A stretch of DNA of 64,000 bases from Dehalococcoidia bacterium (GTDB taxonomy: Bacteria > Chloroflexota > Dehalococcoidia > Bin125), in contig CAXXSR010000001.1 in assembly GCA_963662615.2 (NCBI GenBank), forward strand, positions 1,280,001 through 1,344,000, in the 5' to 3' direction. The notes beneath the pieces are model-generated. The model did not search any database and was not told the origin of the DNA. It saw nothing but the letters and a program-made list of their open reading frames with translations. The translations under genes and the position numbers were made by a program. This document shows positions 35,884 to 49,426 of the stretch, one piece after another (position 1 is the stretch's first letter; each line of letters starts with the position of its first letter).

Positions 35884-36729
35884 GTGACCACGACCCCGGT
35901 TGTCGACGCCGCCGACGCCACCTTCGCCAGCGATGTGATCGAGCGCTCCAATGAGCTGCCCGTCGTGGTGGATTTCTGGGCGCCTTGGTGCGGGCCTTGC
36001 CGCCTGCTCGGCCCTCTCCTCGAACAGGTCGCCGGCGAGTACGCCGGACAGGTCCAGCTCGTCAAGGTCAACACCGACGAGAATCCCCAGGTCTCCCTCC
36101 GCTACCGCATTCAAGGCATCCCGGCCGTGATCGCCTTCCGCGGAGGAGAGCCCATCAACCAGTTCGTGGGGGCGCTGCCGGAGCCGGAGGTCCGCCACTT
36201 CTTCCAGGCGATCGTCCCCTCCGACGTCGATCGCAAAGTCGCGGAGGCGGAGCAGCTCCTCCACCAGGGCCAGCCCGGCGCGGCGCGAGCAGCCTTCGAG
36301 GCGGTCCTGGGGGACGACCCAGAGCATCAGGCCGCCTCGCTCGGCCTGGCCTCGCTCCTCGCCACCACCGGCGAATACGATCGGGCCACCACATTGGCGT
36401 CGAAATGGCCGGGCGACCCCGCCGCCAAGCGCGTGCTCGGCATCGTCAACTTTCAGCGCGCTGCCGGCGACGCCGACGCCGCCACCCTAGTGGCCCGCCT
36501 TGCCGCCAACGACGCCGACTCGGACGCGCACTACAAGCTCGGCAACGTGCTCGCGGTGCAGGGAGACTGGCCCAGCGCGCTGGAGCACCTGCTCGCCACC
36601 GTCCGGCTCGACCGCAGCCTGGAGAACGACGGCGGCCGCGTCCGCCTCCTGGATGCCTTCAACGTCCTAGGCGAAGGCGACGCACTGACCCAGGAGTACC
36701 GCCGCAAGTTGGGGGCGCTGCTCTTCTAG
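35884..36729 (+). CDS. Thioredoxin with a C-terminal TPR domain (YbbN/CnoX-like)
   Basis: DFWAPWCGPC, TPR-like helices, terminal YRRKL..LLF. Confidence 0.92.
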   Translation: MTTTPVVDAADATFASDVIERSNELPVVVDFWAPWCGPCRLLGPLLEQVAGEYAGQVQLVKVNTDENPQVSLRYRIQGIPAVIAFRGGEPINQFVGALPEPEVRHFFQAIVPSDVDRKVAEAEQLLHQGQPGAARAAFEAVLGDDPEHQAASLGLASLLATTGEYDRATTLASKWPGDPAAKRVLGIVNFQRAAGDADAATLVARLAANDADSDAHYKLGNVLAVQGDWPSALEHLLATVRLDRSLENDGGRVRLLDAFNVLGEGDALTQEYRRKLGALLF

Positions 36730-37238: not shown

Positions 37239-39638
37239 ATGCCCTCTTTGCGCGCAGCCGCCGACGTGCGACGGGCGGCCATCGCCATCGCCCTTACCCT
37301 CGCAACAGTGCTCGTCGTGGCCGCGGCCGTCGCCCCACCACTACGCACGCACGCACAGACGCTCACACAGATCACTTTCGTCAGCGCCTCCCGTGCCCCC
37401 TCCGCGGTCACCGCCGGCAGCACCGACGTCCCCTTCCTCAACCTCACTGCGACCGTCTCCGCCGCGACCGCACGCATTGACCGGCTCACCCGCACCGGCA
37501 CGGCCGCTGACGGCGATACCGCCGTCGACGGCATCCGGCTCTGGTTTGACGCCAACGGCAATGGGCTCGTGGACGGCGTCGATCAACTCCTGGACACCGC
37601 AACATTCCTCCAGGGCGTCGCGCTCCTGAAACCGGACTTCGTTGTCGCCTGGACCGCGCCAGCCCTGCTCATCGTCACCGTCGACGTTCGCCCCACCGCT
37701 GGCGCAGGTTCGACCTTGGGCCTCCAGATCGACAGCGCCACTAGCCTCTCCCTCTCCGCCGACGCGCTGATCGCCGGCGACTTCCCGGCCGACTCCGGAC
37801 TGGCCACCATTCTCGCCCTGCCGGACTCGCCCTCTACGGTGGGAGCCGGTACCTCCGTCTCGGGCAACACCACCACCACGGTCCAGACCGCGGACGGCCT
37901 CATCACGGCGACGGTTCCCGCCGGAGCAACCGCCGTCGATCTGATCGTATCGCTCGCCTTGGTGGACTCGGCGCTGCTGCCGGACCGCCCGGGAACGCCG
38001 GCGAGCGCCGCCTATCGCTTGACCTGGAGCGCCACCGACGGCGCCACGCCGCAGGTGCTCGCCGCAGCCGTTCGCATTGAACTGGACCTCGCCGCGATCA
38101 TGCAGGGCGGAGAGGACCATTCTCAGCTCACCGTGATCGCCCTGACCGCCAATGGCGCCTGGCAGGCGCTGCCCTCCACACTCTCGGCCGACGGACTGCG
38201 TCTTATCATCTCCGTGTCCGTCGAAGTGACGTTCTCCCTCGTCATCCTTCCGGGTGCCGTAGCCGATCTCCTCCCGCCGGCAGGCGGCGTCGTGGTGTCG
38301 GCTGACGGGACGGCTCAAGCCATCCTGCCCGCCGGCGCCGTGACCGAGCCGGTGCTGTTGAGCCTGACGCCGTCCCACGCGCCCGCCCCCACGCTCCCCG
38401 GCAGCAGCCGCGCCGTGGGCACTCCGCTGGCGTTCCGTCAGCAGAACCCCGCAACAGGAGAGCCCGCCGATCTGTCCGCCCCCATCACACTGGCCCTGCA
38501 GACGCCGGACCTGAGCGACGTTCCCGGCTGCGAGAGCCCCTGCGCCGTCGCCGTGTATGCCATCCCGAGCGACGGCGGCACGCCGGTCCCCGTGCCCTCC
38601 CGCCTCAGCAACGACGGCCTCCACGTCCTCATAGACGTTTCCGTGGACGTCACGCTGGTCCTGGTCGCCGGGCCCGACATCGCCAGCGGTACCATCGCCG
38701 CCGGCGCCGCCGGCGTCGTCGTCAGCGTCGACGGACGCATCCGGCTTGCCGCGCCGGCCGGCGCCGAAGATCTCACCGTCACGGTCGGGCCCGTGGTGCT
38801 GGACCCGGCCATCGCCGCGCAGGTCGGCTCGGACCTCGTGTTCGCCCCGCAGCACGTCGCCTTTGCCGAAGGCGCCGCTGGCGCGGGGCGCTCCGGTCGC
38901 GAGACGACGCTTGAGATCGCCCTCGACGCGCTCGCGCCCAACGTCGATCCCGCGCAGCTCCAGGCCTTCGGAGTGCCTGCCCATGCCGCCAACGCGGACG
39001 CCGCCACGCCCCGCCTGCTTCCGGCCGTTGTTGACACGGATGCGGACCTCGTCCGCATCGCCGTCAACGTCGACACGACGGTGTTCCTGACACAATTCGC
39101 TGCTTGCCGCGGGGTACCGCTGGAGGCGGGGTGGAATCTGGTCACGTTTAGCGGCCCCGAAGGAATGCCGGCGCCATTCCTCCACACCTTGCTCGGTGAC
39201 CGCCTCATTGCCGTGGACCGCTGGAACGCCGGCGACCGCCGCTACGACACCTATTTCCCTGCCCTCCCAATATCGCAATCGCTCCAGCGCTTCCGGGCGG
39301 AGGACGCGCTCTGGGTCCTCATCGCGGACGGCCCTGCACTGGCCTGGTGCATGGCGGATACACCGCCCGCCTCCCGCTCGGTCGCACTCCACCCTGGCTG
39401 GAACCTGGTCTCGTGGGCGGGGCCGGATACGCCGGCGCCCGAACTCCTGGCGCCGCTTCGCCACGACCTCATCTCGGTCTTCGTCTGGGACCCTCACACT
39501 GCCAGCTTGAACCCCCTCCTGCTGGCCATTGGCCCCATCTTCCCTACGCTGGTGAGCACCCGCGATGCGATGTGGCTCCTGGTCGCTGGGGACATCCCCG
39601 TCACCTGGAACCAGCCCGGCGCGGGCCCCGGAGGCTGA
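37239..39638 (+). CDS. Large secreted surface protein with C-terminal GWNLV repeats
   Basis: Signal peptide; repeated [ST]xDG beta modules; PLEAGWNLVTFSGP and LHPGWNLVSWAGP repeats. Confidence 0.8.
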   Translation: MPSLRAAADVRRAAIAIALTLATVLVVAAAVAPPLRTHAQTLTQITFVSASRAPSAVTAGSTDVPFLNLTATVSAATARIDRLTRTGTAADGDTAVDGIRLWFDANGNGLVDGVDQLLDTATFLQGVALLKPDFVVAWTAPALLIVTVDVRPTAGAGSTLGLQIDSATSLSLSADALIAGDFPADSGLATILALPDSPSTVGAGTSVSGNTTTTVQTADGLITATVPAGATAVDLIVSLALVDSALLPDRPGTPASAAYRLTWSATDGATPQVLAAAVRIELDLAAIMQGGEDHSQLTVIALTANGAWQALPSTLSADGLRLIISVSVEVTFSLVILPGAVADLLPPAGGVVVSADGTAQAILPAGAVTEPVLLSLTPSHAPAPTLPGSSRAVGTPLAFRQQNPATGEPADLSAPITLALQTPDLSDVPGCESPCAVAVYAIPSDGGTPVPVPSRLSNDGLHVLIDVSVDVTLVLVAGPDIASGTIAAGAAGVVVSVDGRIRLAAPAGAEDLTVTVGPVVLDPAIAAQVGSDLVFAPQHVAFAEGAAGAGRSGRETTLEIALDALAPNVDPAQLQAFGVPAHAANADAATPRLLPAVVDTDADLVRIAVNVDTTVFLTQFAACRGVPLEAGWNLVTFSGPEGMPAPFLHTLLGDRLIAVDRWNAGDRRYDTYFPALPISQSLQRFRAEDALWVLIADGPALAWCMADTPPASRSVALHPGWNLVSWAGPDTPAPELLAPLRHDLISVFVWDPHTASLNPLLLAIGPIFPTLVSTRDAMWLLVAGDIPVTWNQPGAGPGG

Positions 39639-39673: not shown

Positions 39674-41239
39674 ATGAACCCGCCCGGCGCCTTCACCCTG
39701 AGCGACGATCAGGGCACGGCCCACCACTTCCCCAACCACACGCCCACGCTCTTGGCCTTCGTCAAAGAGGACTGCGAGACCTGCGATCTGACGCTCCCCT
39801 TGATCGAGGCGATTCATCAAGCGGCGGGAACCGGCGTTGACGTCGTCGCCATCGCCCAGGGGAGCGCCGACATCCCCGTCCTGCGAGATCGGCACCACCT
39901 GACCATGCCCATGCTGGACGACGCCGGCCTCGACGTCTCTTACGAGGCCGACCTGGATACCGTGCCCTCGCTGTTCCTCTACGACGCCGACGGCCACTGT
40001 CGCTTCCAAACCTACGGCTTCGACAAGGACCAGTGGCAGGAACTCACGACGGCCACCATGCAGATGGCCGCCAACTCTCAAGCGGCGCCCTCCATCAACT
40101 GGGACGCGCTGCCCAATCTCAAGCCCGGCTGCGGCGCCCGCAACGTCGATCCCGATGTGGCGGTACGGCTGGCTGCCCGCAAGAGCGGCGGCCTCCGCGC
40201 CCGAGTCATCGATATCGGCGCGCACGACGACGTGCACGAATTCCTTTTCGACCAGGGCTTCACGGACGGCCTCGCCGTTGTCCCACCCACCGCGGAGCGC
40301 GTCTGGCGAATGCTCCAGGGCACCAAGCGCGATCCGCAGGAGGTCGTGGCGGAAGTGCCGCCGAACCTCGCTCCCGCCACCGTGGAGAAAATCGCGATCA
40401 ACGCCGTCATGGCCGGCGCCAAGCCGGAGTACCTGCCCGTCATCCTGACCGCCGTGGAAGCCGCCTGCACCGACGAGTTCAATATCCACGGCGTCCTCGG
40501 CACCACCTGGGTCTCGGGACCCGTCATCGTGGTCAACGGCCCCATCCGTCACCGTCTGGGCATGAACATGAAGATGAACGTGCTGGGCCAGGGCAATCGC
40601 GCCAATTCCACCATCGGGCGCGCCCTCCAGTTGGTGATACGGAACGTCGGCGGCGGCCGGCCCGGTGAGGTCGATCGCGCAGCCCAGGGCGGCCCTCACA
40701 AGGTCGGTTTCTGTTTTCCCGAGTGGGAGGAGCGATCGCCCTGGGAGCCGCTCCACGTGGAACGCGGCTTCGCCCCCAGCGATTCCACCGTCACCCTCTT
40801 CGCCGGCAACGGACCGCAGCCGGTCGCCGACCAGCGGTCGCGCAACGCCGCATCGCTCGTGGCCAGCTTCGCCCTCAGCCTAGAGACGCACTGGCACCGG
40901 AAGCTGCGCAATCTGGGCGAGGTCATGGTCGTGGTGTCGCCGGAACATGTCGACACCATCGCCGCCAGCGGCTGGAGCAAGGACCAGGTTCGTCGCCACA
41001 TCCAGACGGCCATCGCGCGGCCGGCTCGGGACGTGCTCGGCGACGAAGACTGCGCCGAAGGCGTTCCGTCCGCGCTCGCCGGGGATGACCTCGATCGCAA
41101 GTTGCCGAAGTTCCGCGACGACTCGATGATCAATCTCGTCGTTGCCGGCGGCGAGGCGGGGATGTTCTCCGTAATCCTGGGCGGCTGGGCCAGCGGCCCC
41201 GGCGGATCGATCAGCACGACGCGCAAGATCGAAGAATAG
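39674..41239 (+). CDS. Redoxin (CxxC) domain fused to a conserved domain of unknown function
   Basis: FVKEDCETC and TVPSLF thioredoxin-fold motifs; then GFTDGLAVVPPT.ERV, TVEKIAINAVMAG, GNRANSTIGRAL. Confidence 0.85.
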   Translation: MNPPGAFTLSDDQGTAHHFPNHTPTLLAFVKEDCETCDLTLPLIEAIHQAAGTGVDVVAIAQGSADIPVLRDRHHLTMPMLDDAGLDVSYEADLDTVPSLFLYDADGHCRFQTYGFDKDQWQELTTATMQMAANSQAAPSINWDALPNLKPGCGARNVDPDVAVRLAARKSGGLRARVIDIGAHDDVHEFLFDQGFTDGLAVVPPTAERVWRMLQGTKRDPQEVVAEVPPNLAPATVEKIAINAVMAGAKPEYLPVILTAVEAACTDEFNIHGVLGTTWVSGPVIVVNGPIRHRLGMNMKMNVLGQGNRANSTIGRALQLVIRNVGGGRPGEVDRAAQGGPHKVGFCFPEWEERSPWEPLHVERGFAPSDSTVTLFAGNGPQPVADQRSRNAASLVASFALSLETHWHRKLRNLGEVMVVVSPEHVDTIAASGWSKDQVRRHIQTAIARPARDVLGDEDCAEGVPSALAGDDLDRKLPKFRDDSMINLVVAGGEAGMFSVILGGWASGPGGSISTTRKIEE

Positions 41240-41251
41240 GGGGCGCCAATC

Positions 41252-41782
41252 GTGGTTCAGATCCTGGATCCCACTGACGAACGCGAGCCGGTGCAGCGCC
41301 AGTTGGCCGGCCGGCCGGAGGCCCTCGTGGGCACCATTGGCCTCCTGGACATCTCCAAGCCTCGCGGCGACGTGCTCATCGATCGCATCGAAGAGCGCCT
41401 GCGCGAGGAGGCGCCCGCCGTCGCCATCAAGCGCTACGCCAAGCCCACCTACACGAAGCCCGCGCCGGACAACCTCCGTCAACAGATAAAGAAGGAGTGT
41501 GACTTCGTTATCGAAGCCCTGGCCGATTGAGGATCTTGCACCACGTGCAGTGTGCACGACACGACCTGGTTTGAGATTCACGGCCTCCCGGCGCTCTTCC
41601 TCGCCTCCACCGAGTTCAGCGACGGCGCCGCCAAGCAGGCGGCCATGCTCGGGCTGCCGCAGGCGCGGGGCGTCTTCGTCCAGCACCCGGTCCAGGGCCA
41701 AACGGATGACGAGATGCGCGCCAAAGCTGACGCCGTCTTCGATCGCGTTCTGGAGGAGCTGACCCGCCCGGGTGACGCCTAA
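41252..41782 (+). CDS. UGSC-motif selenoprotein (Sec at TGA 41528-41530), 176 aa
   Basis: Two in-frame ORFs joined across a single TGA: EALAD-U-GSCTTCSVHD; hairpin follows the TGA; TAA at 41780-41782. Confidence 0.85.
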
Positions 41783-42474: not shown

Positions 42475-43206
42475 CTAACTCCCGGCCCCACGGACGCTCG
42501 GCGCCCCCACCGACGGGAAATCCGGCGCCCCGAGGCAGCGCACGGTATGCAGCCGCGCCACCTCCGGGTCCAATGCTGCCACAGCGAGCAAGCGGCCGAG
42601 GTCCTCCGGCGTGTCGATGTCCAGCGCCCAGCGTTCGGCGATGTCGCCCGGGCTCAACGGCGTCTCGACCGCGACCCCCGCCGCTCGTGCCGCCCTCGTG
42701 TGCCGCGCCGCCGATCCCCTTCCGAACGCGGGCGCAATGACCCCGGCCGGTCGCAGGAACAGCCCGTTGGTCCCGCCGTTGTGCGCCGGGGCGATGAGGA
42801 CCGCCGCCCCCTCGCCCGAGCCCGCCGCCGCAACAGGCGCCAGAAACGCATCCACGTCATCCGGCCTGATCAGCGGTAGGTCGGCCGGCACGACGAGGAG
42901 CGCGACGCCGTCCCCACGCTCTTTCTGGGCATGACGGATCGCAGAGTTGAGCCCGCGAACGCCGGCGGGCTGGGGCAGGAAGCCCGCATCTAGCCGTTCC
43001 GCTTCGCGCGCGGCCGCGGCGTCTCGGCTCAGGATCGTCACGCGTTGCACCGACGCCGCATTCCCCACAGCCGTCACGACGTCCTCCAGCATCGCTCGGA
43101 CCAAGCGGTTGCGCTGCTGCACCGTGAGCAGCGCCGTCAGCCGCGTCTTGCCGGCGGGCAGGCCGCGGACGGGGATCACCGCTTCGATTTGCGGGGCGTT
43201 AGCCAC
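42475..43206 (-). CDS. cofC: 2-phospho-L-lactate/PEP guanylyltransferase (F420 synthesis)
   Basis: VIPVR..GKTRL, GLN.A, PADLP, GGTNGL, FG..S, DIDTPEDL. Confidence 0.92.
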   Translation of the reverse strand: MANAPQIEAVIPVRGLPAGKTRLTALLTVQQRNRLVRAMLEDVVTAVGNAASVQRVTILSRDAAAAREAERLDAGFLPQPAGVRGLNSAIRHAQKERGDGVALLVVPADLPLIRPDDVDAFLAPVAAAGSGEGAAVLIAPAHNGGTNGLFLRPAGVIAPAFGRGSAARHTRAARAAGVAVETPLSPGDIAERWALDIDTPEDLGRLLAVAALDPEVARLHTVRCLGAPDFPSVGAPSVRGAGS

Positions 43207-43239
43207 GGCGCTCGGATGTCCCCGTCGAACGGCGCCCGC

Positions 43240-44187
43240 TCATGCCTGCAGCGCCTCGAGCGTTGCCGCTGCCAGAGCGCACTTCTCGGCGGCGCCTCTC
43301 ATGATCGTTTGCGTCACGACGCAGCGAACCCCCGTTTCGACGGTGATCGTCGCGGCTTCGTCGGCATCCACTTCATCCAGAATGAACACGTCGATGAGAT
43401 CCTGATAAAGACGCGCCACACCCAACGCCGACACCTGGTGGCCTAGGCTCTCCAGGATGGCGGCGGCCGGCCCTTTAATCGCCCGGCCCCCAACAATGGG
43501 CGTGACCGCCGCCGCCGGAGCGCTGCTGGTCAAGAGGCAGTCGCGCAACCCCGGGACGGCCAGAATGGGGCCAATAGAGAGAAACGGATTACTGGGCGCG
43601 ACGATGATCGCGCGCGCCTCCATGATCGCATCGTGTACGCCCGGAGCCGCCTCTGCGGCGCCGGCGCCGGTGAAGTGCAGGCCCGTGACCCGATCTTGCT
43701 GGCCCCGCTTTACAAAGTATTCCTGAAACGGCAGCTCTCCCGCCTCCGTCTCCACGATCGTCCGCAGGCGCTGATCGGTCACCGGCACGATCGTGCTGCG
43801 CACGCCCCGCGCCTGCGCGATCTCCGCCGTCACGGCGCTCAACGGCGCCCCCTCCGCCAGCCGCTGCGAGCGGTACAGGTGCGTGCCCAGGTCGCGGTCG
43901 CCCAGCTGGAACCAGTCCGGGCCGCCCAGCGCCCTGAGCGCCTCCAATGCCACGAACGAGTCGCTGCGAATCCCCCAGCCGCTCTCCGGGTTGACCTCGC
44001 CCGCCAGGGTGTACGTGACAGTGTCGATGTCGGGGGAGATGTACAGCCCTGCGAGTTCGAAGTCGTCCCCCACATTGACGATGGCGAAGACGTCCTCCGC
44101 CGCCACAATCTGCACCAGGCCTTCCAGGAATCGGGCCGCCCCCACGCCGCCCGACAGCACCACCACCGGTCCGCTCTTGGGCGACAT
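43240..44187 (-). CDS. cofD: 2-phospho-L-lactate transferase (F420 synthesis)
   Basis: LSGGVGAARFL, NVGDD, SPDIDT, LGDRD, FQEYFV, PSNPFLSIGPIL, KGPA. Confidence 0.96.
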   Translation of the reverse strand: MSPKSGPVVVLSGGVGAARFLEGLVQIVAAEDVFAIVNVGDDFELAGLYISPDIDTVTYTLAGEVNPESGWGIRSDSFVALEALRALGGPDWFQLGDRDLGTHLYRSQRLAEGAPLSAVTAEIAQARGVRSTIVPVTDQRLRTIVETEAGELPFQEYFVKRGQQDRVTGLHFTGAGAAEAAPGVHDAIMEARAIIVAPSNPFLSIGPILAVPGLRDCLLTSSAPAAAVTPIVGGRAIKGPAAAILESLGHQVSALGVARLYQDLIDVFILDEVDADEAATITVETGVRCVVTQTIMRGAAEKCALAAATLEALQA

Positions 44188-44242
44188 GGCGCGAGCGTAG
44201 CACGCTGCCCTCGCCACCCCGCAGACCGCGTTGCAGCGACCC

Positions 44243-44590
44243 TCACTCCACAGCGACGTTGACGTGGAACGTCCCCGCTTCTTCTTCGCCGACCTCCACA
44301 ACGACGGGCGCCACCTCCGTATCCGGATCGGCGAAGAGCGCACGCAAACGGAGAGAGCCCCGCGGCTCAAATTCCAGCACTTCTCCCAGCGCGCCCGACC
44401 AGCTCCCGCCGGGCCCATCGACAGTCAGCTCGCCCTCTCGCACGTTGTGCTCCTCATCGATGATGAGATGGATCGTCCCCTCCCACTCCTCGCTCGCGTC
44501 GATCGCCCGCACCGTGAGATGCCGGCTGCCGTCCAGCTGCATCTCGTCCGCCACGGCCTCCCCGCGCAGCGGAGGAACGTTGAGCGCCAT
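44243..44590 (-). CDS. Hypothetical acidic protein
   Basis: 115-aa ORF with TACGAT 6 nt upstream of ATG; no recognised motif. Confidence 0.6.
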   Translation of the reverse strand: MALNVPPLRGEAVADEMQLDGSRHLTVRAIDASEEWEGTIHLIIDEEHNVREGELTVDGPGGSWSGALGEVLEFEPRGSLRLRALFADPDTEVAPVVVEVGEEEAGTFHVNVAVE

Positions 44591-46163: not shown

Positions 46164-46499
46164 CTACGTTGGTGGATGGCGCTCGTGCCGCAATCGCATC
46201 GGCATGCGCCCGTCCTCTCTGATCACCACAATGTTGCCAACGCCCTCCCGCTTCGCAACGAACATCGCCTGCGACAGCGCCGTGCCGATGGTCGCGTAGG
46301 CCGTGTACGTCGGCCCCTCCACTACCTGCCAGCATGTTCCCGCCTGGCGCACCTCCACCTCCCCAATTCGCCTCGCTCCGGGCCGCACCCCCTGCCGCCG
46401 CTCCTCATGCAACAGCGGCGGCCGGTAGTTCAGCGTGACCCAACCGTTGGCGGACGGCGCGCCCACCTCCACATTCGGAACCGTTTCCGTACCTGGCAT
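46164..46499 (-). CDS. Hypothetical protein translationally coupled to nrdJ
   Basis: ATG overlaps the nrdJ TGA (TGATG); 111 aa. Confidence 0.5.
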   Translation of the reverse strand: MPGTETVPNVEVGAPSANGWVTLNYRPPLLHEERRQGVRPGARRIGEVEVRQAGTCWQVVEGPTYTAYATIGTALSQAMFVAKREGVGNIVVIREDGRMPMRLRHERHPPT

Positions 46500-49426
46500 C
46501 AGCTGCACCCGCTCGTCGCGCCACAATTGAAGCAGCGGTAACAGCTCCCGTTCCGCACCATCATGTGCCCGCATTCGTGGCAGAGCGGCGCGTCCAGCTG
46601 ATTCTGAAACGCCCCCGGGCTGCCCTTCCCGTTCGGCTCCGGCACGTCCTGAGCGCCTCGAATCACCGGGGACTTGCTCAAGTGCGCCGGAATCGGGACG
46701 CCCTCCGCCGCGCTCGCATCAGTCGGGGGGCCGGCGGGGCGCTCCTCCTGCAACGGCAGGGGCGCCTGCGCCGCCGCCACGTCGGCCTGCTCCGGCTTCA
46801 GGTACTGCAGCCCCATCCAGCGGAACACGTAGTCCAGAATGGAGCTCGCGTAACCGATCTCCGGGTTGCGCGTCCAGCCGCTCGGCTCGAAGCGACTGTG
46901 GCTGAACTTGCGCACCAGCGTCTCCAGCGGCACCCCCGACTGCAGCGCCACGCTCGTCAACGCTCCCACCGCGTCGACCAGCCCCGAGACGGTCGAGCCT
47001 TCCTTCGAGATGTGAATGAACATCTCCCCCGGCTGGCCGTTGGCGAACTGGCCCACGGTCAGGTAGCCCTCGTGGTCACCGATGCTGAACTTGTGCGTGA
47101 CGGCGTCGCGCTTGTCCGGCATTCGGTGACGGCGATACGCCGGCGGGGTCAGCGCGTTGTCGATGATCGTCGGCGTATCCGCGGAAGCGGTAGCCCGAGT
47201 GGTCGCGTTAGCGGTACTGGTCGCTGCGCCGACGTTGACGTCGATCTTCTTACCGTCGACCCGCTGCCTCGTCTCGAGCGGCTGAATTCGCTTGGAGTTG
47301 TCGCGATAGATCGCGATCGCCTTGACCCCCAGCTGCCAGGCCTGCACGTATGCGTCCATGATCTCGTCGACCGTGGCCTCTTCCGGCACGTTCACGGTCT
47401 TGGAGATGGCACCCGAGATGAACGGCTGCACGGCCCCCATCATGCGCACATGTCCCATGGGTTCAATGCTGCGCCCTTCCCCTTGGGATGGGCCGGCGCT
47501 CTTGAAGGCGCAGTCGAACACTGCCAGGTGCTCGTCCCACAGTCCGGGCGCGCCCTCAATGGTGCCGTTCTCATCGACGTAGGCGACGATCCGATCGACG
47601 GCGTCACTCTCGTAGCCCAGGCGCGCCAGCGCCGCCGGGACCGTCCCATTGACCATCTTCATGTAGCCGCCGCCGGAGAGGTTCTTGTACTTCACCAGGG
47701 CGATGTCGGGCTCCACCCCGGTCGTGTCGCAATCCATCATGAAGGCGATCGTGCCCGTAGGCGCCAGCACCGTGGCCTGCGCGTTGCGATAGCCGAACTG
47801 GCGGCCCAGCCGCAGCGCCTCGTCCCAGCTGTGATGCGCGGCGGCCTCCAACTCCGGCGGCAGCGTGGCCAGCCCCTCGATCGCGGCGACCGCGTCGCTA
47901 TGCTTGCCGATCACGCGCAGGAACGGCTCCCGGTTCGGCTGGAACTCCGCGAACGGCCCCACCCGTTCGGCGATCCGCGCTGACTGTCCGTACGCCTCTC
48001 CCGTCATCACGGCGGTAATGACCCCCGCCATCGCCCGGCCCTCCACCGAGTCGTAGGGGAGGCCGCGCGCCATCAAGAGCGCGCCCAAGTTCGTGTAGCC
48101 CAGCCCCAGGGGCCGGAACTTCTCGCTGTTCTCCGCGATCAGCGCCGACGGGTAGGAGGCGTTGCTGACCAAGATCTCTTGCGCGGTGATCAGGACCCGA
48201 CAGGCGTGGCGGAACGCCGCCACGTCCAAGGTATGCGAGTCCAGGTCGTAGAACTTGAGCAGGTTCAACGACGCCAGATTGCAGGCCGTGTCATTCAGGA
48301 ACATGTACTCGGAGCAGGGGTTGCTCGCGTAGATCCGGTCCGTGGCGGCGCAGGGGTTCCAGTCGTTGATGGTGGTGTCGAACTGCATGCCCGGGTCGCC
48401 GCACTGATGCGTCGCCTCCGCAATGGCGCGCAGCACATCACGCGTGCGCAGTTCGTCCACGGGCTCACCCGTCGTCACCGCTTGCGTCCAGTAGGCGCCG
48501 TCCGCTTCCAGCGCGCGCATGAAGGCGTCGCTGACGCGGACGCTGTGGTTCGCGTTCTGGAAGAACACGGAAGAGTACGCCTCGCCGTTGAGGCCGCCGT
48601 CATAGCCCGCTTCAATCAGCGACCACGCCTTCCGCTCCTCCGCCGCCTTGCACCAAATAAACTCCATCACGTCGGGGTGATCGGCGTTGAGGATGATCAT
48701 CTTCGCCGCCCGACGGGTCTTGCCGCCCGACTTGATCACGTTGGCGAAGGCGTCGTAGCCCTGCATGAACGAGACCGGTCCGGACGGCGTCCCGCCGCCG
48801 GAGAGACGTTCGCTGCTGGAGCGCAGCGTGGACAGGTTGCTGCCCGTGCCGCTGCCCCACTTGAACAGCAGCGCCTCCCGCGTCGCCAGGTCCATGATTG
48901 ACTCCATGGTGTCTTCCACGGAGTTGATGAAGCACGCGGAGCACTGCGGCTTCGCTTCCACACCCACGTTGAACCAGACCGGACTGTTGAAGGCGGCGTA
49001 CTGATTGACCAGCAGAAAGCGCAGTTCCTGCTCGAAGGCCTGGGTCTCGGCCTCGCCCAGGAAATAGCCGCCTTCGCGCCCCCACCGGCCGATGCTGTCA
49101 ACGACACGGTCGATCAGCTGCCGCACCGACGTCTCTCGCTGCGGGCTGCCCACCGCCCCGTAAAAGTACTTCGACGCCACGATGTTGGTCGCGTTCTGCG
49201 ACCAGAACGCCGGCACTTCCACGTCCGCCTGCTCGAAGAGGACCTCGCCGCTGTCCGACGTGATTGACGCCCTGCGGCGCTCCCAAGTGATCTCGTCGTA
49301 GGGGTGGACCTCGGGCCGCGTGAAGCGACGCCGCAAGAACGGCGTCCCGCCCGCGTCCGCGCCACCCGCCCCCTCGGCGACCGACACCTCAACGCCCACA
49401 GCGGCAGCTTCTTCAGAGTGGCTCAC
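46499..49426 (-). CDS. nrdJ: Class II ribonucleotide reductase with C-terminal TSCPD-like domain and zinc ribbon
   Basis: FNSPVWFN, QCSACFI, SGGKTRRAAKM, SNPCSEY, LAPTGTI, ISKTVN; terminal CHECG..CYRCFNCGATSGCS. Confidence 0.96.
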   Translation of the reverse strand: MSHSEEAAAVGVEVSVAEGAGGADAGGTPFLRRRFTRPEVHPYDEITWERRRASITSDSGEVLFEQADVEVPAFWSQNATNIVASKYFYGAVGSPQRETSVRQLIDRVVDSIGRWGREGGYFLGEAETQAFEQELRFLLVNQYAAFNSPVWFNVGVEAKPQCSACFINSVEDTMESIMDLATREALLFKWGSGTGSNLSTLRSSSERLSGGGTPSGPVSFMQGYDAFANVIKSGGKTRRAAKMIILNADHPDVMEFIWCKAAEERKAWSLIEAGYDGGLNGEAYSSVFFQNANHSVRVSDAFMRALEADGAYWTQAVTTGEPVDELRTRDVLRAIAEATHQCGDPGMQFDTTINDWNPCAATDRIYASNPCSEYMFLNDTACNLASLNLLKFYDLDSHTLDVAAFRHACRVLITAQEILVSNASYPSALIAENSEKFRPLGLGYTNLGALLMARGLPYDSVEGRAMAGVITAVMTGEAYGQSARIAERVGPFAEFQPNREPFLRVIGKHSDAVAAIEGLATLPPELEAAAHHSWDEALRLGRQFGYRNAQATVLAPTGTIAFMMDCDTTGVEPDIALVKYKNLSGGGYMKMVNGTVPAALARLGYESDAVDRIVAYVDENGTIEGAPGLWDEHLAVFDCAFKSAGPSQGEGRSIEPMGHVRMMGAVQPFISGAISKTVNVPEEATVDEIMDAYVQAWQLGVKAIAIYRDNSKRIQPLETRQRVDGKKIDVNVGAATSTANATTRATASADTPTIIDNALTPPAYRRHRMPDKRDAVTHKFSIGDHEGYLTVGQFANGQPGEMFIHISKEGSTVSGLVDAVGALTSVALQSGVPLETLVRKFSHSRFEPSGWTRNPEIGYASSILDYVFRWMGLQYLKPEQADVAAAQAPLPLQEERPAGPPTDASAAEGVPIPAHLSKSPVIRGAQDVPEPNGKGSPGAFQNQLDAPLCHECGHMMVRNGSCYRCFNCGATSGCS

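Follow-up and report, generated by a model that had tools for sequence, protein, structure and literature searches.

We analysed a 64,000-nucleotide (nt) stretch of a Dehalococcoidia genome (positions 1,280,001 to 1,344,000 of contig CAXXSR010000001.1, assembly GCA_963662615.2; hereafter the window), in which two adjacent genes on the forward strand encode a redoxin-containing fusion protein and, directly downstream, a selenoprotein of the UGSC family. The upstream gene (39674..41239) encodes, from its ATG at 39674, a protein of 521 amino acids (aa), which consists of a thioredoxin-fold (TlpA/Redoxin-like) domain (39674..40078) with the CxxC motif CETC (C34/C37, nt 39773-39784), a linker motif of the form W..P..(R/K)PGCG (40100..40135; here KPGCG, with C153 at nt 40130-40132) and a large domain of an uncharacterised family (40181..41236). 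The motifs of the latter are G(W/F)TDGLPVVPPT, AINAVMAG(C/A), GxRANATIGRA and CFxE, and the window protein holds GFTDGLAVVPPT and NRANSTIGRAL. The ATG could be fixed as the start because the homologues are also ~520 aa long and span 100% of the fusion protein. The second gene (41252..41782) starts with a GTG after a gap of 12 nt and ends with the stop codon TAA (41780-41782). It appears as two open reading frames (ORFs), 41252-41530 and 41552-41782, which share one frame and have a TGA (41528-41530) as their sole separator. When this TGA is read as selenocysteine (Sec, U), a 176-aa protein with the sequence ...EALAD-U-GSCTTCSVHD... results, in which Sec is residue 93, and a hairpin of the SECIS (selenocysteine insertion sequence) type follows on the same strand (41542..41560), with a core stem of 41544-41549 and 41553-41558 enclosing the loop GTG (41550-41552). 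This layout, that is, two same-frame ORFs split by a TGA alone and a start 12 nt behind a CETC/KPGCG/large-domain protein, had been described in a first-pass annotation made from the letters of the DNA, and both observations held.

Indeed, the read-through protein matched the UGSC family over nearly the full length of its Pfam model (PF24696; 157.7 bits, cut-off 25; 3.9e-46; model positions 1-171 of 172) and also exceeded the cut-off of the corresponding NCBIfam model (NF041046; 161.9 bits, cut-off 125), which confirms the family assignment made at first pass. In 301 genomes of the window's phylum, UGSC was matched 55 times, and 51 of these matches contained a single in-frame TGA; of the other four, two were partial and fell short of the TGA site, and two were full-length and carried no TGA. 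We aligned 24 TGA-bearing genes with two Cys forms and found that the TGA aligned with the Cys of the latter, with similarity extending to both sides of U93 in the 24 TGA-bearing homologues, so that the U position is occupied by TGA or Cys, as a true Sec site had been expected to be. Within the U-G-S-C site, U93 (Cys in the Cys forms), G94 and C96 were invariant in 26/26 aligned members, and so were G111 and P146. Metagenome contigs from four runs of four different studies spanned 40402-41566 with 0-2 differences and an unaltered TGA. Two variants seen in such contigs, 41533 A>G and 41536 T>C, were synonymous, and the summed contig depth of the four runs rose from ~3-10 to 330-1490 at 40384-40454 (AINAVMAG) and 41520-41590 (UGSC/SECIS), two segments that are matched at 90% or more by many other organisms' genes. 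The window's own genome (2.66 Mb in two contigs, 93.6% complete) also encodes the Sec machinery that the first-pass annotation had called for: selA, selB and selD all scored above their model cut-offs, and the gene for tRNA-Sec (selC) was found with 74.5 bits and called SeC(tca) by ARAGORN. The selD gene of this genome (C1:19276-20211) has one in-frame TGA and is thus itself a selenoprotein gene. As had been suspected of standard gene callers, the gene is usually fragmented, with most database homologues ending at 96-100 aa (~51% coverage). Together, the conserved TGA, the aligned Cys forms and the Sec of the GrdB-like proteins described below indicate that the UGA at 41528-41530 encodes Sec and that the gene is a genuine full-length member of the UGSC selenoprotein family.

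In the window, the hairpin lies 14-33 nt past the UGA. It could be formed in all 24 TGA-bearing genes, starting ~14-16 nt past the UGA, and the loop G and T were invariant in 24/24 sequences of the ungapped alignment. Pairing was found in 84.4% of the hairpin cells versus 69.1% in shuffled alignments, and compensatory changes in 20 cells versus 4.2, values that were each reached by 0/500 shuffles; both sides changed in five of the eight hairpin pairs, and controls in which the hairpin was slid along the alignment paired in just 20-56% of cells. Folded alone, the 73 nt after the UGA of the window sequence were not unusual (z -0.53), and an Rfam E-value search around the UGA returned no relevant family; the support for a SECIS element comes from the comparative evidence. 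Since the stem lies within the coding sequence, over codons 98-103, residues 99 and 102 covary among the homologues (C..H, W..H, A..A, R..R). Residue 99, the third Cys of U-x-x-C-x-x-C, is thereby tied to RNA pairing and is no constant of the UGSC family. The U-x-x-C-x-x-C motif highlighted at first pass is therefore present in the window protein, but its third Cys is not conserved in the family.

The upstream protein resembled known families over its first ~120 aa only, where its N-terminal domain reached 18.2 bits with Pfam Redoxin (below the cut-off of 26.6) and 25.5 bits with NCBIfam ResA (far below the cut-off of 170); the AhpC-TSA/Redoxin cut-offs were passed by some of its homologues. 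No hydrophobic stretch was seen at the N-terminus of the redoxin domain. Full-length homologues were numerous (>8000 among the matches listed, 55-73% identity, ~520 aa) and go by the database name 'TlpA family protein disulfide reductase', which is taken from the N-terminal domain. In an alignment of 117 of them, which excludes P0003 as a duplicate of the query and three sequences of under 500 aa, the CxxC was conserved at C34 in 117/117 and at C37 in 116/117, the linker residues W143, P147, P151, G152, C153 and G154 were invariant in 117/117 redoxin-fused homologues, and C347 was kept in 116/117. The structure model of the linker region was of low confidence. C249, the Cys of AINAVMAGC, was present in 106/117 fusion homologues and in at least 90% of the wider large-domain family; in single ORFs that fuse UGSC to the large domain, the equivalent position is Ala or Gly.

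The large domain itself (~365 aa) has relatives in 5212 cluster representatives at E<=1e-3 (1265 at E<=1e-30). No Pfam model covered it in any of 44 members, which gave only occasional N-terminal redoxin matches, and no NCBIfam model matched it. Its structure was predicted with a pLDDT (predicted local distance difference test) of 90.6 and a pTM (predicted template modelling score) of 0.90. Foldseek retrieved nothing at E<=1e-3 among solved structures, the best matches being class I fumarate hydratase and Toblerone-fold hydrolases at a template modelling score (TM) of ~0.2, and a wide structure search with VIA peaked at background level (best Z 6.4; 90 residues, root-mean-square deviation 2.9). 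Likewise, sequence and profile searches against the PDB gave no relative of the domain, and the ESM Atlas contributed unnamed clusters only, one of which had PF24696 on 41% of its members. Two candidate identities were dropped. An iron-sulfur hydro-lyase would call for more conserved Cys residues than the domain has, the main one being replaced by Ala in the window protein; the formation of a pyruvoyl group at the G-C of VMAGC was discarded because the window protein has G-A there. Thus, a family of this size stands without a family model of its own and is mis-named after an optional redoxin domain.

The pairing of the two genes was surveyed in the same 301 genomes and in 301 genomes of a second phylum (around G302). 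In the window's phylum, the large domain was found in 36/301 and UGSC in 33/301 genomes, and all 33 UGSC genomes also held the large domain. For 48 of the 58 large-domain matches, a same-strand UGSC match lay within 400 nt, with UGSC first in 32 of these pairs and the large domain first in 16. These tallies include two unpublished genomes (G038, G227); without these, they become 34 and 31 of 299 genomes and 45/55 matches. In the second phylum, UGSC and the large domain each occurred in 4/301 genomes, the same four, and 5/5 UGSC matches adjoined a large-domain match. Furthermore, a UGSC-type domain and the large domain are encoded together in single ORFs at L036 (with H-U-S-T-C), at L057 (a Cys form of that of L036) and at L054. 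The fused ORF of L054 (7079-8746) has Thr at the Sec position and a motif that lacks Cys (GD-T-RSG-S), and may be a non-redox or inactive variant. The redoxin, by comparison, is optional, as just ~7/58 large-domain matches in the window's phylum reach the linker. At 10 loci found with the redoxin fusion protein, UGSC followed directly downstream in three, was absent from at least 850 nt in five, and two were cut off; the five genomes of the second group all hold a UGSC gene with TGA elsewhere. One genome had as many as 8 UGSC and 6 large-domain matches. The window's own genome contains a second pair (C2:38526-40074, reverse strand), consisting of a UGSC gene with TGA followed by a large domain without redoxin (36% identity to that of the window) and then a short-chain dehydrogenase/reductase (SDR) gene. 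Judged by these genomic distributions, the large domain is the obligate partner of UGSC. The co-occurrence and fusion of the two genes that the first-pass annotation had proposed to score were thus found, and its redoxin-large domain-Sec protein pair was supported as a pairing, though with the large domain as the conserved partner and the redoxin as an add-on.

The structure model of UGSC (pLDDT 94.9) is built from five beta-alpha units, the third helix of which begins at the Sec, with Sec93 and Cys96 lying within U-G-S-C, and it does not have a thioredoxin-like topology. Foldseek returned generic flavodoxin-like and CheY-like matches (TM ~0.5), and VIA gave a flat list (best Z 11.4; 257 chains at Z>=8), so that no specific relative emerged among solved structures, only a generic flavodoxin-like fold; an ESM Atlas search with a database Cys form had no usable match. 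The predicted fold of UGSC is accordingly described here as flavodoxin-like. The resemblance of U-x-x-C-x-x-C to GrdB prompted a comparison with this protein. Genes matching PF07355 (GRDB) were present in 50/301 genomes of the window's phylum (a count that includes the unpublished G038 and G272), and the GrdB-like frames run on through a TGA just past the Pfam match (...AVILTST-U-GTSTRCG...E.AGIP...HPLG), with other GrdB-like proteins reading VAT-U-G-S-C-N-R-C. Because the Pfam GRDB model ends shortly before the Sec, the TGA of GrdB-type genes looks like a normal stop. In profile-profile comparisons with hhalign, UGSC matched the read-through GrdB-like proteins both with 4 sequences (probability 94.8%, E 5.2e-8) and with 15 (95.3%, E 2.3e-8), the latter over 96 columns with Sec placed on Sec. 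As a control, UGSC was compared with the portion of GrdB that Pfam covers, which lacks the Sec region, and the probability was 0.7%. The GrdB-like genes of the phylum have PF09338 (GrdE-type) genes upstream. Gene pairs of a GrdE-type protein and a GrdB-type selenoprotein are present in these 50/301 genomes, several per genome (L064-L079), and many further ~140-aa matches in the phylum cover GRDB positions 205-346 only. PF07355 had no match at E<=10 in the window's own genome, as in a 14-genome control that was also empty, the same model having found the 50/301. The profile match indicates homology between the Sec-bearing half of UGSC, which is free-standing, and the Sec module at the C-terminus of GrdB, and the architecture of a large-subunit gene next to a Sec-subunit gene is, by sequence comparison, parallel to GrdE/GrdB, with unrelated large subunits.

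What surrounds the pairs in other genomes was assessed by Pfam scans of 129 ORFs neighbouring them. Coenzyme A-transferases of three families were encoded near pairs at L029, L030, L034, L035, L038, L039 and L048, SDRs at L031, L033, L038 and L039, and isocitrate-type and 2-hydroxyacid dehydrogenases at L034 and L035; other neighbours were amidohydrolases, an M20 peptidase, ATP-binding cassette (ABC) and major facilitator superfamily (MFS) transporters and IclR regulators. At L036 and L040, a Pyr_redox_2 gene of thioredoxin-reductase size lay directly downstream of the module, and no analogue of GrdA or GrdC was seen among these ORFs. Such neighbours, together with the copy number, fit a substrate-diversified catabolic enzyme in need of a dithiol reductant.

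With moderate confidence, we favour the reading that the window pair constitutes a two-gene selenoenzyme module, namely a two-part reductase of the Grd/Prd-like type that is driven by thiols and whose large subunit is of a new kind. Given the homology of the Sec module to GrdB and the fused or adjacent reductants, we infer a catalytic cycle in which the two proteins would bind each other and the substrate would be held by the large domain. The selenolate of Sec93 would then attack the held substrate, Cys96 would resolve the Se-adduct to yield a selenenylsulfide, and this would be re-reduced via Cys153 and the CxxC of the redoxin or, at loci without a fused redoxin, by free thioredoxin or the adjacent thioredoxin-reductase-like enzyme. 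Electrons might thus pass in the order suggested at first pass, from redoxin via large domain to Sec protein. By analogy, the large domain probably binds the substrate and fills the position of the clostridial GrdE/PrdA subunits, proteins to which it is unrelated; the likely substrate is a small carboxylic acid or a derivative of an amino acid, and it would probably differ between paralogous pairs. A broader generalisation is put forward more tentatively, and we consider it rather doubtful as a whole: UGSC and its partner might form widespread cytoplasmic selenoenzymes, driven by thioredoxin-type proteins and diversified in their substrates, that perform a Grd/Prd-like reductive C-X bond cleavage with a novel substrate-binding subunit that does not depend on pyruvoyl and whose fold has no solved relative.

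Several observations weigh against the favoured reading of a Grd/Prd-like reductase. At position 249 (nt 40418-40420), the window protein and its 11-13 closest relatives carry Ala instead of the nearly invariant Cys of the large-domain family. The pairing is not without exceptions, as UGSC is missing from three large-domain genomes of the window's phylum and 10/58 large-domain matches lack an adjacent UGSC, and most pairs have no dedicated reductant alongside. The hhalign match covers just the C-terminal ~96 of the 196 columns of the UGSC profile, and PF07355, run with HMMER, matched none of the 26 UGSC proteins at E<=10. The large domain, for its part, aligned neither with GrdE-like proteins (0.14%) nor with the N-terminal region of GrdB (0.05%). 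With no relation to GrdE and no sign of a pyruvoyl group, the analogy to Grd/Prd may stop at the Sec module.

Three other explanations were weighed. The pair could be a non-redox catalyst, such as an isomerase, racemase or lyase, in which Sec/Cys acts as nucleophile or in acid-base catalysis and the redoxin just keeps Sec reduced. The location of pairs in catabolic clusters would suit such an enzyme, as would the scarcity of redoxin fusions (~7/58 large-domain matches), with most pairs lacking a reductant of their own, and the L054 ORF (7079-8746), which keeps the large domain despite Thr in place of Sec and the loss of the motif Cys. Yet U-x-x-C, a typical redox pair, is invariant in 26/26 sequences, UGSC shares homology with a reductase's Sec module, the >8000 redoxin fusions among the matches listed come with an invariant extra Cys, and genes of thioredoxin-reductase type follow directly downstream in two loci, so that we regard non-redox catalysis as unlikely. 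We hold it to be quite improbable that the pair belongs to a general thiol-disulfide or antioxidant system, as a peroxidase or as a reductase of protein disulfides or sulfoxides. The weak matches of the redoxin domain to ResA, TlpA and AhpC, and the finding that most bacterial selenoproteins are homologues of thiol oxidoreductases, as stated in the parts of PMC2398784 considered here, would point that way; however, the 'TlpA family' name derives from no more than the first 120 aa, UGSC has the large domain and not the redoxin as its conserved partner, several paralogous pairs per genome reside within catabolic operons, and the UGSC model is not a thioredoxin fold.

The remaining explanation, a broken gene in the form of a Cys-to-stop pseudogene or of two independent small ORFs, draws on the two ORFs that gene calling with translation table 11 yields and on the unremarkable fold of the 73 nt after the UGA when taken alone (z -0.53). 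It is effectively refuted and retains a negligible probability, considering that the same TGA recurs in 51/55 family matches and is identical in four independent assemblies, that the hairpin covaries, and that the Sec machinery of the genome is complete. If the broader generalisation put forward above is true, it would explain the role of an orphan selenoprotein that ranks among the most abundant in aquatic microbes. The obligate partner, the Sec module akin to that of GrdB and the fused or adjacent reductants recast this orphan as a two-subunit enzyme of defined composition, with a chemical hypothesis attached. The function of UGSC thereby becomes testable, and the enzyme can be expressed and assayed.

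The neighbours of the pair in the window are the gene of a 799-aa protein, an MTS methyltransferase gene and the CofC/CofD genes, and Pfam scans of these neighbour genes gave no hint of a substrate. The 799-aa ORF (37239-39638, forward strand), which ends 35 nt before the fusion gene, encodes an Ala/Val/Thr/Pro-rich protein with a hydrophobic N-terminal stretch that matched no family in the Pfam scan. Further upstream, a protein with thioredoxin and tetratricopeptide repeat (TPR) domains is encoded at 35884-36726 (forward strand), and downstream of the pair, on the reverse strand, the genes of CofC and CofD of F420 biosynthesis (42475-44418) and of a TSCPD-domain class II ribonucleotide reductase (46499-49426) were found. 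Two long ORFs with high third-position G+C run antisense inside the fusion gene (40078-40545 and 40696-41226, reverse strand) and are artefacts of the 68% G+C content.

Parts of this picture were already known, namely the UGSC family and its fusion to 'Unknown_1', which Zhang and Gladyshev noted in 2008 (PMC2398784) in their account of UGSC. The Global Ocean Sampling (GOS) reads listed under UGSC in Dataset S1 of that paper run on into GWTDGLPIVPPT...VMAGCRPEY, that is, into large-domain motifs, and 'Unknown_1' is therefore the large domain. In its UGSC passages, the same paper called the fold 'likely Trx-like' and the function unknown, and counted 255 Sec forms in GOS, UGSC having ranked among the most abundant selenoproteins of aquatic metagenomes since 2005-2008. 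The function is likewise listed as unknown in the UGSC passages of PMC13188914, PMC1976440 and PMC9312934; a review of 2026, where it treats UGSC, still has it as uncharacterised. Hyphomonas neptunium is named in PMC1976440 as a carrier of a UGSC gene. Neither the obligate pairing, nor the redoxin/PGCG form, nor the GrdB homology is mentioned in the UGSC passages of PMC2398784 (Figure S1 aside), PMC13188914, PMC1976440 and PMC9312934, and relative to these passages of the open literature the obligate pairing and the GrdB link appear to be new.

Compared with known systems, the window protein is a full-length member of the UGSC family (PF24696/NF041046) with the U-G-S-C site, and its model is flavodoxin-like, whereas the UGSC passages of PMC2398784 proposed a thioredoxin-like (Trx-like) fold. 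The fusion protein shares with the TlpA/ResA oxidoreductases a thioredoxin-fold domain with CxxC, but differs from them in its sub-cut-off scores, in the lack of a hydrophobic N-terminal anchor and in the joining of its redoxin to a 365-aa cytoplasmic domain via an invariant PGCG linker. Unlike GrdB, UGSC has only 176 aa, lacks the ~330-aa N-terminal part and is not matched by the PF07355 model; its partner is not similar to GrdE/PrdA (PF09338), and no analogue of GrdA or GrdC was seen near the UGSC pairs in the neighbouring ORFs scanned. What UGSC has in common with GrdB is the homologous Sec module, in which Sec aligns with Sec and the landmarks E..G.P and HP(L/V)G recur. According to the relevant parts of PMC10298544, glycine reductase is driven by thioredoxin and D-proline reductase uses a dithiol, both reactions ending in a selenenylsulfide, and the reductant proposed here for the UGSC pair would be of the same dithiol or thioredoxin type; substrate plasticity is described for GrdB-type enzymes in the passages of PMC10838667 considered. 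Finally, as in GrdB+GrdE and PrdB+PrdA, the gene of the Sec subunit lies next to that of a larger partner subunit, which is substrate-specific in those systems and probably so here.

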